From a virus (taxonomy: Duplodnaviria > Heunggongvirae > Uroviricota > Caudoviricetes): a stretch of DNA of 4,557 nt. The stretch lies in the IMG/VR virus record IMGVR_UViG_2706794683_000010. The stretch is one strand, 5' to 3'. The notes beneath the pieces are model-generated. The model was given only the letters and a program-made list of their open reading frames with translations, was not told the DNA's origin and made no database searches. The first letter of the stretch is position 1. Every line of letters starts with the position of its first letter. A program made the translations under genes and the position numbers. Below, in pieces: positions 1-4,557 of this stretch.

Positions 1-107
1 GGCTGGGACGGAAGTCGCTGTCGTTCTCAAAATCGGTGGAGCTGCATGACAAAGTCATCGGGCATTATCTGAACATAAAACACTATCAATAAGTTGGAGT
101 CATTACC
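1..107 (+). repeat. Left terminal inverted repeat (IR-L), 107 bp; exact reverse complement of 4451..4557
   Basis: Base-by-base comparison of 1..107 with the reverse complement of 4451..4557 shows 107/107 identity; identity ends abruptly at 108 (c) versus the complement of 4450 (t). GC-richer outer part (1..~60), AT-rich inner part (~61..107). Confidence 0.97.
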
Positions 108-489
108 CGTTAAAACATCTGCAGATAATGACGTTGACTTGGATACAGATGGATTCAGACAACTGAGGATATCGTGCCCATCCCCTTCTGCCAGCGGTGC
201 GATTATATTGAGAAAAGCTTCTTATGAATTCGGCAAAAGTATAGGTGTATTTGATTTTGCAAACAATGCATCACCAGCGACGATGACATTTTTGATCCCA
301 ATATATAAAGATGATGATTTTGATTCAGATACTGTTGGTTTTACATTTGCGTTCAAGATGCCAAGAGGCCAGTTTTTTGTAGATGTAAAAGAAAACGGGA
401 ATATCAGAGCTGGAGTTAATGTTAATGGCGAGTCGGGAGTGACCTACGAAAATTGCAAATTGAATATGAAAGATATTAATGATGATTAA
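94..489 (+). CDS. Hypothetical acidic protein, 131 aa, AT-rich moron-like ORF; start uncertain (TTG at 94 inside IR-L, weak SD; first in-frame ATG is at 283)
   Basis: A 396-nt open frame in about 38% GC DNA (my count for 101..489: 146 G+C of 389), where stop codons would normally be frequent. TAA stop at 487..489 is followed 8 nt later by a canonical intrinsic terminator. No signal peptide or hydrophobic segment is apparent by eye. I do not recognise the family. Confidence 0.5.
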   Translation: MESLPVKTSADNDVDLDTDGFRQLRISCPSPSASGAIILRKASYEFGKSIGVFDFANNASPATMTFLIPIYKDDDFDSDTVGFTFAFKMPRGQFFVDVKENGNIRAGVNVNGESGVTYENCKLNMKDINDD

Positions 490-496
490 TATATAA

Positions 497-521
497 GCCG
501 CCAGAAATTGGCGGTTTTTTT
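497..521 (+). terminator. Rho-independent terminator: G-C rich stem (498..503 CCGCCA paired with 509..514 TGGCGG), 5-nt loop GAAAT, then T7 tract 515..521
   Basis: Directly read from sequence: gCCGCCAgaaatTGGCGGttttttt. Lies 8 nt after the stop of the 94..489 ORF and 15 nt before the start codon of the next gene. Confidence 0.8.
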
Positions 522-535
522 ATAGTGGAGACAGT

Positions 536-1927
536 ATGGACTTACCTTCTTTACCTTCTCTTTCTTCACTCTTTTCTGCATCTTCAGGTATCAATTGGCG
601 CGATAATCTTTACGACGCTTCATTTCGTGGCGTTCCGTTTTCGGTGGAGAGCGACGAGGGTTCGTTCGGACGCCGCGTTCAGGTCCATGAATACCCAAAC
701 CGTGACAAACCGTACACGGAAGATCTCGGGCGTGCCACGCGACGGCTGACGATTAATGCGTATCTCGTTGGTGATGATTACGCAGAGCAGCGCGACAGGC
801 TGATTACAGCGATTGAAACCGCCGGGCCGGGGACGCTGATCCATCCGCAGTTCGGTGAAATGCAGGGCTGTATTGACGGGCAGGTGACCGTTTCTCACTC
901 CGGCACTGAAGGCCGTATGTGCCGGGTTTCATTTCAGTTTGTTGAGAGCGGGGAACTGTCATTTCCGGTCGCCGGAGCTGCAACCGCCAGAAAACTGGAG
1001 GAGTCGTCCGTATTCCTGGATGAGTTGATTGAAGACATGTTCGGCGATTTTGATCTCGCGGGAATACCGGACTTTATTCAGAACGATGTTATTGCCCGGA
1101 CGACCGATATGCTGGGAACCGTTCAGACAGCTTTCAAAATGGTTAATTCGGCTGTTTCTGCCGGAGCGAGACTACTGCAGGGCGATTTATCCGTCATTCT
1201 GATGCCGCCGTCGGTTGCCAGTGATTTTGTGCATACGTTGCAGGATACCTGGCGGGCCGGAACCCGGCTGGTGGATAACACACAGGATCTGGTGCAGTCC
1301 ATAACGACAATGTCCGGCATTACGCTGGACCCAGGACTGGCACCGCGTGCGGTGTGGCCCACAGATTCCGCATCGGTTATCAGGCAAAAACAGCAGACAA
1401 ACCTTGTGGCTGCTGTCATCCGGACGACGGCAATCAGCGAAGCCACAAGGGCGGTCACTTCACTGCCACAACCCGGAAGCCTGGTGAAAAATCAGCAGGC
1501 GGTTGTGGCTGTTGGTGGTTCCACTGAACGTCAGTCCGATATTATTCACGTTTCTCATCCGGCACTTGACAGCGTGGCAGCCAGCACAGGACAGGATGAG
1601 AGAGCGCAACCACCCACGCGGGAAAATCTCACCATCATACGCAAATCGCTGAACGCGGCGATTGAACAGGAGCTCAGGCGTACGGCGGATGACAGGCTGT
1701 TTTTTCAGCTGACGTCATTACGTACAGAACTGAACCGGGATATTCAGGCGCGTCTGGTTCAGACGGAGGAAACCGCAGAGCGAACGCCAGCGGAAGTTCT
1801 GCCTGCGCTTGTTCTGGCTGCGTCATGGTACGACGATGCGTCCCGTGAAACTGATATCCTGGATCGAAATGCCATCTCTCATCCGGGCTTTGTTCCGGTC
1901 AGGGCATTAAGGGTACCCGTCAGATGA
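536..1927 (+). CDS. Phage Mu gp43 (N)-like DNA circulation protein, 463 aa
   Basis: ATG at 536 with GGAG Shine-Dalgarno at 527..530 (5-nt spacing). The N-terminal region WRDNLYDASFRGVPFSVE...FGRRVQVHEYPNRDKPYTEDLGRATRRLTINAYLVGDDY matches my memory of the DNA circulation protein N-terminal domain of Mu N-like proteins. Stop TGA at 1925..1927 overlaps the next start (ATGA). Confidence 0.85.
   Translation: MDLPSLPSLSSLFSASSGINWRDNLYDASFRGVPFSVESDEGSFGRRVQVHEYPNRDKPYTEDLGRATRRLTINAYLVGDDYAEQRDRLITAIETAGPGTLIHPQFGEMQGCIDGQVTVSHSGTEGRMCRVSFQFVESGELSFPVAGAATARKLEESSVFLDELIEDMFGDFDLAGIPDFIQNDVIARTTDMLGTVQTAFKMVNSAVSAGARLLQGDLSVILMPPSVASDFVHTLQDTWRAGTRLVDNTQDLVQSITTMSGITLDPGLAPRAVWPTDSASVIRQKQQTNLVAAVIRTTAISEATRAVTSLPQPGSLVKNQQAVVAVGGSTERQSDIIHVSHPALDSVAASTGQDERAQPPTRENLTIIRKSLNAAIEQELRRTADDRLFFQLTSLRTELNRDIQARLVQTEETAERTPAEVLPALVLAASWYDDASRETDILDRNAISHPGFVPVRALRVPVR
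542..559 (+). repeat. Perfect 9-bp tandem direct repeat (ttaccttct x2) inside a 45-nt polypyrimidine tract (541..585) at the 5' end of the N-like CDS
   Basis: 542..550 and 551..559 are both ttaccttct and encode LPS-LPS. In 541..585 I count 40 pyrimidines of 45 nt on the + strand. Confidence 0.7.
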
Positions 1928-3006
1928 ATGATACCGTTTTACTTCGGGTTTCCGGTCGCGAATGGGGCGGCTGGACATCCGTCCGTATCAGTGCGGGCAT
2001 TAACCGTATTGCCCGGGATTTTAATGTTGCCATTACCACCCGCTGGCCCGGAAGCCGGGATTATCAACCCCGGATAAAAAATGGTGAGCTGGTTGAAGTG
2101 CTTATCGGGGATGAGCCTGTGCTCACCGGATATGTGGAGGCACTACCGCTTCGTTATGACGCCAGCAGCGTCAGCATGGGAATTGTCGGGCGAAGCAAAA
2201 CAGCCGATCTGGTTGACTGCTCTGCTTTGCCACTCCAGCAGAGCGGAAAAAACCTGCTCAGAATAGTCAGTGAACTGGCTGCGCCATTTGGCATCACCGT
2301 TGTTGATGCTGGCGTGCCGCAGACAGCGGTGATTGATGCCCAGCCGGAACACGGCGAAACCGTTGCCGATTGTCTTAACCGGTTACTGGGGCAGGTTCAG
2401 ACGCTGGCTTATGACGATGAATGCGGGCGACTGGTTCTGGGAAAACCCGGAACAGGTAAAGCGGCGACGGCGCTGGTGCTGGTGCTGGGAGAGAATATTC
2501 TTTCCTGTGACACGGAAAGAAGCATCAGAGAGCGGTTTTCTGAATATCAGGTCAGTGGGCAGCGCCCGGGCAACGACGATGATTTTGGTGAGGCCACCAT
2601 TGCCGCAATACGTCAGACCATTCAGGACAGTGGCGTGACCCGTTATCGCCCTTTGTTGATTCAGCAGTCAGGCACAGCAACGACAGCAACCTGTAAGGCC
2701 CGTTGTGAATTTGAAGCGCGCCAACGGGCTGCGCTTACCCGTGAGACAACATATACGGTTCAGGGCTGGCGGCAGGGCAGTGGCGCGTTATGGCGTCCGG
2801 GGTTATCTGTCATCGTTTTCGACCCGCTGAATAATTTTGATAATGATGAACTGGTGATCGCAGAAGTTACCTATAACCAGGACGACCGGGGCACGACGAC
2901 TGAATTACGGGTTGGCCCGGCAGATGCTTATCTCCCCGAGCCTGTTACCGCCAGGAAGAAAAAAATGTTGAGGAGGATTTCTGATGAACGGGTTTTCTCT
3001 TCGTAA
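1924..3006 (+). CDS. Phage Mu gp44 (P)-like baseplate hub / tail protein (P2 gpD-like late control D family), 360 aa
   Basis: ATG at 1924 overlaps the upstream stop by 4 nt (translational coupling). Size and position immediately after the N-like gene fit the Mu order N-P-Q. The N-terminal sequence resembles Mu P-like tail proteins from memory. Stop TAA at 3004..3006. Confidence 0.85.
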   Translation: MNDTVLLRVSGREWGGWTSVRISAGINRIARDFNVAITTRWPGSRDYQPRIKNGELVEVLIGDEPVLTGYVEALPLRYDASSVSMGIVGRSKTADLVDCSALPLQQSGKNLLRIVSELAAPFGITVVDAGVPQTAVIDAQPEHGETVADCLNRLLGQVQTLAYDDECGRLVLGKPGTGKAATALVLVLGENILSCDTERSIRERFSEYQVSGQRPGNDDDFGEATIAAIRQTIQDSGVTRYRPLLIQQSGTATTATCKARCEFEARQRAALTRETTYTVQGWRQGSGALWRPGLSVIVFDPLNNFDNDELVIAEVTYNQDDRGTTTELRVGPADAYLPEPVTARKKKMLRRISDERVFSS

Positions 3007-3448
3007 TCTGATTTCCCGGGCTGTCATCACGGCGGTGGATTCCGCCAGAAAGTGTCAGTCTGTAGGGTTGAAAATGATAGCCGGAGATCAGAAACAACAC
3101 GTTGAGCACCTTGAACCTTATGGTTTTACATCTGCCGCACAGAACGGTGCTGAGGGCGTTGCTTTATTTCCGGCGGGCGATCGTTCTCATGGTGTGGTTG
3201 TGGTCGTGGCTGACAGACGTTACCGGCTGAAAGGACTGAAACGTGGGGAAGTGGCGCTTTATGACGATCTGGGACAGTCCGTTGTCCTGACCCGTTCCGG
3301 TATTGTGGTGGACGGGGCCGGGAAGGCCATAATTTTTAAAAACGCGCCTAAAGCGCGCTTTGAAATGCCAGTCGAATCCACCGCCGATATTACTGACAAT
3401 TGCGACAGTGGCGGGATCACTGACACGCCGGATCAACCGATGGGCTGA
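2984..3448 (+). CDS. Phage Mu gp45 (Q)-like baseplate spike / baseplate assembly protein V family, 154 aa
   Basis: ATG at 2984 preceded by AGGAGG at 2971..2976 (7-nt spacing); overlaps the upstream gene by 23 nt. The region GVALFPAGDRSHGVVVVVADRRYRLKGLKRGEVALYDD resembles the OB-fold N-terminal domain of gpV-type spike proteins from memory. Stop TGA at 3446..3448. Confidence 0.8.
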   Translation: MNGFSLRNLISRAVITAVDSARKCQSVGLKMIAGDQKQHVEHLEPYGFTSAAQNGAEGVALFPAGDRSHGVVVVVADRRYRLKGLKRGEVALYDDLGQSVVLTRSGIVVDGAGKAIIFKNAPKARFEMPVESTADITDNCDSGGITDTPDQPMG

Positions 3449-3453
3449 AAATC

Positions 3454-3864
3454 ATGATGATTAATGTTAACGGGCGACCCGTGTCGACCGGGGCTTCGAT
3501 CGACCTTCTGACGCGTGCTGTGATTATTTCGCTTTTTACATGGCGGCGTGCCGGGCGTGATGATGCACCACGGATATTTGGATGGTGGGGGGATACCTGG
3601 CCTGCGGTTCAGAATGATCGCACGGGGTCGCGTTTGTATCTGTTGCGACGCAGCAAGCTGACAAATAAAACCCCGCAGCTTGCCAGAGATTATGTCCGTG
3701 AGGCGCTGGCGTGGATGGTGGAGGATGGTGTTGCTTCCCGTCTTGATATTAACGCTGTCCGGACCGGGACAGACTCGCTGGCACTTGCCATTACCATTTA
3801 CCAGCGTGACGGCAATATTCACAACATTATTTTTGATGATATCTGGAGTGAACTGAATGGCTGA
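3454..3864 (+). CDS. Phage Mu gp46-family baseplate protein, 136 aa
   Basis: ATG at 3454 (ATGATG; weak SD), 5 nt after the upstream stop. Size and synteny match the small gene between Q and the Baseplate_J gene in Mu-like tail modules. Stop TGA at 3862..3864 overlaps the next start by 8 nt. Confidence 0.75.
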   Translation: MMINVNGRPVSTGASIDLLTRAVIISLFTWRRAGRDDAPRIFGWWGDTWPAVQNDRTGSRLYLLRRSKLTNKTPQLARDYVREALAWMVEDGVASRLDINAVRTGTDSLALAITIYQRDGNIHNIIFDDIWSELNG

Positions 3865-4531
3865 CAGTCAGTTTTATCGCCCCGGCCTCCCGCAACTTAT
3901 TTCTATGATCCGGAGCGATTTATTAACCCGCTTTGAGCAGGATACGCTGCTTCGTCGTATGGATGCGGAAGTGTATGCCCGTGTACAGGCTGCAGCCGTA
4001 CACACGTTGTACGGGTATATCGATTATCTTGCCAGAAATCTGTTACCGGACGTGTGTGATGAAGACTGGCTGTACCGGCACGCCAGAATCAAACGCTGCC
4101 CGCGAAAAGAAGCGGTGGCAGCCCGGGGATTTGTGCGCTGGGATGGCGTAGAGGGGACGCCGGTATTGCCAGCGGGAACGCAGATCCAGCGTGATAATCA
4201 GGTGACCTTTACCACGACGGCGACGGTGACCGCAGCCGATGGTCTTCTCCGGGTGCCTGTTGTGGCAGACGAACCGGGATCGGCGGGGAATACGGATGAT
4301 GGTATTGCCATGCAACTGGGAACACCCGTCAGTGGTCTGCCGTCCACAGGGTACGCTGACACCATTACAGACGGTGAAGATATTGAAAATCTGGAAATAT
4401 GGCGTGCCCGCGTTATGGAACGTTATTACTACATTCCACAGGGGGGCGCAGGTAATGACTCCAACTTATTGATAGTGTTTTATGTTCAGATAATGCCCGA
4501 TGACTTTGTCATGCAGCTCCACCGATTTTGA
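3857..4531 (+). CDS. Baseplate_J-like protein (Mu gp47 / P2 gpJ family), 3'-truncated: family-like sequence for about 198 codons (3857..4450), then 26 repeat-encoded codons and a TGA stop inside IR-R; probable pseudogene or fusion
   Basis: ATG at 3857 overlapping the upstream gene. Synteny after the gp46-like gene; N-terminal region with conserved-looking aromatic and charged residues (YARVQAAAVHTLYGYIDYLARN, FVRWDG). The ORF crosses the IR boundary at 4450/4451 and terminates at 4529..4531. Its length (224 aa) is below what I recall for this family (roughly 300 aa or more, from memory). Confidence 0.7.
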   Translation: MADSQFYRPGLPQLISMIRSDLLTRFEQDTLLRRMDAEVYARVQAAAVHTLYGYIDYLARNLLPDVCDEDWLYRHARIKRCPRKEAVAARGFVRWDGVEGTPVLPAGTQIQRDNQVTFTTTATVTAADGLLRVPVVADEPGSAGNTDDGIAMQLGTPVSGLPSTGYADTITDGEDIENLEIWRARVMERYYYIPQGGAGNDSNLLIVFYVQIMPDDFVMQLHRF

Positions 4532-4557
4532 GAACGACAGCGACTTCCGTCCCAGCC
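4451..4557 (-). repeat. Right terminal inverted repeat (IR-R), 107 bp; exact reverse complement of 1..107
   Basis: Same comparison as IR-L. The junction at 4450/4451 lies inside the Baseplate_J-like ORF, immediately after a G6 run (4441..4446). Confidence 0.97.

Follow-up and report, generated by a model that had tools for sequence, protein, structure and literature searches.

The question raised by this locus is whether an AT-rich open reading frame (ORF) upstream of a set of phage tail genes is a foreign gene in its own right or the remainder of a larger one. It is located at the left end of a 4,557-nt fragment of a tailed phage genome (IMG/VR record IMGVR_UViG_2706794683_000010), referred to as the window in the following. 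Direct counting revealed a GC content of 37.5% for positions 101–489 (146 of 389 nt), which agrees exactly with the count in the initial annotation, and of 54.4% for the tail gene part at positions 536–4450, for which a sliding profile was made as well. Since a stop-free run of 127–131 codons has a probability of about 3–4e-5 per frame at this base composition, the reading frame was regarded as a real coding sequence, which was confirmed by the homologues described below. As noticed before from the sequence, the frame encodes an acidic product (pI 4.5), has its first in-frame ATG at position 283, and stays open up to a stop codon (487–489) closely followed by a canonical intrinsic terminator, the hairpin of which has a folding energy of -14 kcal/mol (z = -3.4 compared to shuffled sequences). 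A scan against Rfam resulted in sub-threshold matches only, driven by this hairpin. Downstream of the module, the conserved tail genes begin with the one for a DNA circularization protein. All features are listed in Table 1.

Table 1. Features identified in the window; positions are counted from its first nucleotide.
Feature	Position	Strand	Remarks
Right end (last 107 nt) of a 768-bp IS1	1..107	+	insB 3' end with stop codon TAA at 90-92; terminal inverted repeat ending ...GGAGTCATTACC at 107
Mechanical ORF	94..489	+	TTG start, 131 codons, open; not a real start
3' remnant of a 160-codon moron gene (predicted exported lipoprotein, phrog_5586)	108..489	+	last base of codon 34 through codon 160 and stop
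9-bp IS1 target-site duplication CGTTAAAAC	108..116	.	other copy across IS1, outside the window
Sub-ORF of 68 codons from first in-frame ATG	283..489	+	called as a gene by some pipelines in S. sonnei chromosomes
Intrinsic terminator of the moron	495..521	+	hairpin 495-517, core CCGCCA/TGGCGG 498-514, T-run 515-521
DNA circularization protein gene (Mu gp43/N-like)	536..1927	+	annotation; Pfam DNA_circ_N; Shine-Dalgarno sequence GGAG 526-529
End of a second IS1, opposite orientation	4451..4557	-	splits the baseplate-J gene; own 9-bp duplication GGGGGCGCA at 4442-4450

The two ends of the window (1–107 and 4451–4557) form a perfect inverted repeat of 107 nt, and both were identified as termini of IS1. 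In S. sonnei chromosomes the element next to the AT-rich remnant is complete, comprising 768 bp (4805–5572 in locus L005) with the ends GGTGATGCTGCC... and ...GGAGTCATTACC and genes on the plus strand matching Pfam families Zn_ribbon_InsA, HTH_Tnp_IS1, and DDE_Tnp_IS1. The gene order there is tape-measure gene, short fragment, IS1, AT-rich remnant, and DNA circularization gene, with a second, inverted IS1 in the baseplate-J gene. This changes the reading of the left end of the ORF, which had been described as initiating within the repeat at TTG94 with a weak Shine-Dalgarno (SD) sequence. TTG94 is IS1 sequence located 1 nt past the insB stop codon (TAAGTTG), and no SD sequence was found in front of it. 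The first five codons, TTG GAG TCA TTA CCC (94–108), are all derived from IS1 except for the very last base (108), with which the remnant begins. In the same way, the AT-richness thought to begin inside the repeat at about position 61 had to be reassigned: positions 61–107 are AT-rich too (34% GC), but represent the IS1 terminus and lie outside the module, whose own sequence starts at position 108.

An intact version of the gene was identified in the prophage of E. coli FDAARGOS_944 (L001, 7900–8382). It is 483 nt long (160 codons) and starts with GTG, in front of which GGAG is found; a gap of 67 nt separates it from the tape-measure gene. The remnant in the window is 100% identical to it. Window position 108 corresponds to L001 position 8001, so the window lacks the initial 101 nt, and with them start codon, SD sequence, signal peptide, and lipobox. 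The 5' 110 nt of the gene, including the 9 bp that are duplicated, were located on the other side of IS1 in S. sonnei, where this split-off part forms a 43-aa stub that reads into the left end of IS1 and is annotated as a separate hypothetical protein. The junctions in L005 read ...ATTAGTAACGTTAAAAC/GGTGATGCTGCC...IS1...GGAGTCATTACC/CGTTAAAACATCTGC, and the intact L001 has CGTTAAAAC only once. The locus thus displays what characterizes a simple IS1 insertion, i.e., an element of 768 bp with insA and insB, terminal inverted repeats, and a 9-bp duplication. IS1 thus inserted after nucleotide 110 of the gene in the S. sonnei lineage of the window, duplicating 9 bp and stranding start codon, SD sequence, and export signal beyond the element, so that the window retains only the 3' 127 codons together with the terminator.

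Based on this comparison, the AT-rich ORF is very likely the 3' four-fifths of a prophage lipoprotein cargo gene, dead and truncated by IS1, in a decaying S. sonnei prophage. IS1 insertions are known to be strongly polar. Because of this polarity and of the missing start, SD sequence, and export signal, the copy in the window was considered non-functional, and we classify it with high confidence as a pseudogene. The initial annotation had proposed a moron-type cargo gene or, alternatively, what remained at the 3' end of a gene after the repeat had replaced its 5' end, and had named a longer gene disrupted at 107/108 as the finding that would speak against an independent gene. Such a longer gene exists, and the two alternatives are true together: the module is a moron, its copy in the window is a truncated pseudogene, and the ORF is indeed a 3' remnant, from which the 5' end was split off by simple insertion rather than replaced. 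The apparent start in the repeat also misleads annotation pipelines, which called "hypothetical proteins" of 130, 120, 68, and 43 aa in this region. The 68-aa one corresponds to the gene called at 5748–5954 in L009, L010, and L011 (window 283–489). No SD sequence was found upstream of its ATG at 283, and it is probably not a real gene.

In regard to the second IS1, the two inverted copies were checked for forming a composite transposon, which was rejected, since each copy has a separate 9-bp duplication and they reside in different genes. Thus, they represent two independent simple insertions, and both junctions were located at identical coordinates in all eight chromosomes examined. The ORF at 3857–4531 (224 aa), part of the baseplate-J/gp47 gene, runs into this second element. 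Exact look-ups of the 463-aa DNA circularization protein of the window revealed thousands of assemblies named Shigella sonnei or Shigella, and also complete chromosomes of 4.3–4.9 Mb, while the longest contig carrying the protein was only 2–5 kb in 3,132 of 3,271 index blocks. The window looks like a whole short-read draft contig bounded by collapsed IS1 copies, and its terminal 107-nt inverted repeat would therefore partly be made by the assembly ends. The exact junction pattern of IS1 and remnant gave no match in genome_contigs, probably because only one genome is kept per species there and Shigella is filed under E. coli. IS-driven pseudogenization is described as characteristic of Shigella in a passage of PMC8072062. 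The case of the window shares with the IS1 insertional pseudogenes of this genus a 768-bp IS1 with a 9-bp duplication splitting a coding sequence in all sampled chromosomes of the lineage, shows no difference from them, and is thus typical, i.e., an ordinary event for Shigella that adds one more pseudogene made by IS1.

The moron nature of the module was analyzed using empty sites. The query comprised 1,796 nt, namely the 3' end of the tape-measure gene, the module, and the 5' end of the DNA circularization gene, and matched 50 genomes. Eleven of these carry the module; about 40 possess both flanks at 94–97% identity with a span that is 581 nt shorter. In the two empty sites that were aligned, the tape-measure gene stops 15 nt before the ATG of the DNA circularization gene. 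The inserted block of 581 nt reaches from the last tape-measure codons to just beyond the T-run of the terminator, and the alignment of the window to the empty-site prophages resumes at about position 521, so that the right edge of the module was placed at about 520/521. Its GC content is 36.7–36.9% compared to 52–55% on either side in L001, 34.4% compared to 54% in phage vB_EcoM-720R4, and 35.9% compared to 46% in Yersinia. Morons are defined as extra DNA of deviant GC content with their own promoter and terminator (PMC3594210). Extra DNA, deviant GC content, and an own terminator were all found for the module; strict and relaxed scans for a sigma-70 promoter upstream of the intact gene revealed no match to at least 9 of 12 consensus positions in L001 or L004, and in the window the region upstream of the gene has been removed by IS1. 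It is possible that the gene is expressed only within the late tail operon. Since about 40 prophages that are closely related do not have the module, we regard it as a genuine moron, which in its intact form consists of one gene of 160 codons and an intrinsic terminator between the tape-measure and the Mu N-like DNA circularization genes. Positions 108–521 of the window were shown to be the surviving right-hand part of this 581-nt AT-rich moron, whose boundaries are now clean and backed by an empty-site control.

Among 5,426 complete E. coli genomes, no more than 11 were found to contain the segment 108–535 (97.4–100% identity), always between the tape-measure and DNA circularization genes. 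The prophage carrying it combines HK97-type head genes with Mu-type tail genes, so that the term Mu-like prophage used before is appropriate for the tail genes but not for the head genes. Homologues near tail genes, for which a search had been proposed, were also found at this site outside of E. coli chromosomes: phage vB_EcoM-720R4, deposited as a phage isolate, harbors a homologue of 50% identity, and a Yersinia enterocolitica prophage (74% identity) as well as a plasmid-borne prophage display the same synteny. In 720R4 a different hairpin with T-run occupies the position of the terminator; it was read by eye in the alignment and not called by the terminator scan. As a side observation, an efficient-looking terminator (window 495–535; L001 8388–8428; L004 about 7490–7545) interrupts the late tail operon halfway, with about 15 nt between it and the leading gene of the baseplate cluster downstream, so that late transcription must pass through it, either via antitermination or because it is leaky.

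The intact protein begins with MIKPFLMTVAILTSC/C. A lipoprotein signal of the PROSITE PS51257 type comprises a positively charged n-region, a hydrophobic h-region, and the lipobox [LVI][ASTVI][GAS]C with the cysteine at about position 15–35. Applying this rule as a coded lipobox search, the protein was recognized as a putative lipoprotein (Cys15, K3). The lipobox reads LTSC/C or LISC/C in the branch comprising E. coli, Shigella, and Yersinia (LISC/C in Yersinia), and the subgroup of 50% identity as well as distant members display Sec-type signals without the lipobox cysteine. Judging from these signals, the intact protein is with high confidence predicted to be exported. For the E. coli/Shigella/Yersinia branch sorting to the outer membrane is predicted, because no Asp is present at +2 (standard Lol rule), and proteins of the other branches, carrying an ordinary Sec signal, would be periplasmic. 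The Y. enterocolitica copy (L019, about 7975–8000) shows an apparent 1-nt frameshift in a 5' poly-A run with a called start MMLISCC; if the run were longer by a single A, the sequence would become MKKTYLLVFMMLISC/C and match a lipoprotein signal perfectly. This frameshift may be a sequencing error, a sign of a pseudogene, or a case of slippage-prone expression.

As to its family, scans of the full-length protein against Pfam, NCBIfam, and PADLOC resulted in no match (0 families in PADLOC-DB at E <= 10), in agreement with the previous statement that no family was recognizable. Among phage orthologous groups, residues 1–160 match the 161-position profile of phrog_5586 with E = 1e-88, a group annotated as "unknown function". 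Eleven diverse members of the family all matched phrog_5586 and nothing else, and none of them gave a Pfam match. All members revealed a signal peptide and two invariant cysteines. Structure prediction with AlphaFold was unusable with 5 sequences (pLDDT 40), so that the model was taken from the run with 11 sequences (pLDDT 84), which displayed a helix and an eight-stranded β-barrel. According to this model, the fold is with high confidence an N-terminal helix packed on a calycin-like eight-stranded β-barrel, probably stapled by a predicted disulfide between the invariant C57 and C150. A profile search against PDB revealed nothing meaningful, and Foldseek found no match at E <= 0.001 in PDB or BFVD. 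Three large multi-repeat proteins (P0017, P0018, and P0020) obtained by exhaustive HMMER search were rejected as low-complexity or adhesin-repeat artefacts, as they match only the "CP-SAS" stretch. No papers were found in a literature search with the protein accessions and the phage name. The product thus emerges, on the basis of a confident model, as a predicted exported lipoprotein or periplasmic β-barrel with no structural or sequence relatives.

The family is tiny and rare, and it is carried by prophages and phage-plasmids. The intact gene is present in E. coli strains such as FDAARGOS_944 and STEC309, in S. flexneri, and in phage vB_EcoM-720R4. Distant homologues of 24–28% identity were identified on phage-plasmid-like metagenomic contigs of 20–39 kb (L016, 740–1270; L017, 2919–3413; L018, 2044–2550), where the GC content of the gene is not deviant. 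There, they are flanked by a ParC-like gene and a toxin-antitoxin pair, with IncFII repA, ParA, and a CI-like repressor encoded in the vicinity. The same rare family thus travels in tail operons and in maintenance regions of phage-plasmids, and the latter location favors cargo over a part of the virion.

No family, motif, or structural neighbor assigning a function was found in profile, Pfam, and structure searches, and the proposals made here derive from comparison with known systems. For HK97 gp15, which resides in the inner membrane, superinfection exclusion has been demonstrated (Juhala/Hendrix; Cumby, Davidson and Maxwell, PMC3594210). Gene 15 is likewise a single-gene insertion of foreign GC content in the tail operon beside the tape-measure gene, is missing from related phages, and encodes a small envelope protein; the protein studied here differs from gp15 in being a predicted lipoprotein or periplasmic β-barrel, and its sequence is not similar to that of gp15. 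Cor (phi80/N15/HK022), Llp (T5), and Bor (lambda) are small phage proteins with a lipobox, which are encoded near tail genes and act in the envelope of the cell that the phage has infected or lysogenized. With these, the intact protein shares its small size, the lipobox, the accessory character, and the location close to tail genes. On the other hand, a Pfam scan detected no sequence relationship, the protein is about twice as large as Cor and Llp, and many members of its family are predicted to be soluble in the periplasm instead of being lipoproteins. Bor is also among the phage-encoded accessory proteins cited in PMC3594210. The periplasmic lysozyme inhibitors MliC, PliC, and PhiA, which are calycin-like barrels, resemble the model at the level of the fold only, no better than avidins or designed barrels do; neither a match to the Pfam MliC family nor motifs plugging the active site were found, and the additional N-terminal helix and the cysteine pattern differ from MliC/PliC.

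By analogy with HK97 gp15, Cor, Llp, Bor, and the periplasmic barrel inhibitors only, the intact protein may work in the lysogen's envelope, where it would protect the cell by binding or blocking, a suggestion that we put forward tentatively and consider possible rather than probable. Candidate roles would be superinfection exclusion at the outer membrane or in the periplasm, or inhibition of an incoming enzyme acting in the periplasm. More speculative is the wider proposal that phrog_5586 and its distant relatives form an unrecognized class of mobile-element cargo, a small periplasmic or outer-membrane-anchored calycin-like barrel that would shield lysogens and carriers of phage-plasmids by binding either an envelope component or part of an incoming phage or toxin. 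If true, this would mean a new mechanism of superinfection exclusion or immunity, and the inactivation by IS1 would be part of the loss of prophage-borne envelope functions in the S. sonnei lineage. Because of the clean boundaries, the predicted export, and the distribution on two kinds of mobile elements, the intact gene is a cheap and reasonable candidate for screens for superinfection exclusion or envelope protection.

As an alternative, the intact protein could be a host-directed factor of lysogenic conversion, for instance an outer-membrane lipoprotein that alters serum or lysozyme resistance or the interaction with the host, like lambda Bor or MliC/PliC, instead of acting against phages; we judge this unlikely. 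Far less probable is a role as an optional tail or baseplate accessory protein or assembly factor, expressed from the late operon and hence fixed in position. Such a role would explain why the position is constant in prophages of E. coli, Shigella, and Yersinia, in phage 720R4, and in the plasmid-borne prophage, and why no own promoter was detected, but the gene is missing in the roughly 40 prophages whose flanking tail genes are 94–97% identical, its product carries a Sec or lipoprotein signal whereas tails are assembled in the cytoplasm, its foreign GC content and the terminator just before the next tail gene do not fit, and the distant homologues reside in plasmid maintenance regions with no tail genes nearby.

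Envelope protection as the tentative role concerns the intact gene. For the copy in the window, a last alternative is that the truncated ORF still works, with read-through from IS1 and re-initiation at TTG94, or initiation at ATG283, yielding a cytoplasmic acidic protein of new or retained function. Translation of the insB frame of IS1 depends on a rare frameshift. Since insA and insB lie on the same strand directly upstream and the TAAGTTG arrangement puts a start-type codon beside the insB stop, trace translation of a signal-less fragment is possible; the remnant is moreover undecayed, and pipelines call the 68-aa ORF. We nevertheless regard a working gene as most improbable, as both candidate starts lack an SD sequence, TTG is a poor initiator, polarity and the rare frameshift limit expression through IS1, the signal peptide and two invariant cysteines of all family members point to an extracytoplasmic fold, so that a read-through product without the export signal would miss the compartment in which the family acts, and the lack of decay can be explained without selection, as the tail genes around the remnant have decayed just as little.

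Returning to the pseudogene and its surroundings, only two indels were detected between 4.3 kb of the window and the S. sonnei chromosomes. At about position 3407, within the ORF at 2984–3448, 69 nt are missing in frame compared to S. sonnei L005 and L006, so that the Mu gp45-like baseplate gene encodes 154 aa compared to 177 aa. This gap is the sole difference to L006 over the 4.3-kb insert, and L005 additionally differs by a 6-nt repeat; the 69-nt difference may be a strain-specific deletion or an assembly collapse. The repeat is a tandem unit GCTGGT at positions 2466–2477 in the gp44-like gene, the copy number of which varies among S. sonnei chromosomes and in comparison to E. coli. Furthermore, a 1-nt difference to the E. 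coli reference at about position 2958 lengthens and changes the C-terminus of the gp44-like protein (Mu P; 360 aa compared to 351 aa), and its ORF (1924–3006) then overlaps the start of the gp45-like ORF by 23 nt. Upstream in the S. sonnei prophage, an IS3-family transposase gene abuts the tail-sheath gene. As this gene and the second IS1 are present in addition, the prophage was regarded as a multiply disrupted remnant. In the FDAARGOS_944 prophage, which carries the intact moron, the tail-sheath gene is split by ISEc60 (L001, 2307–5107).
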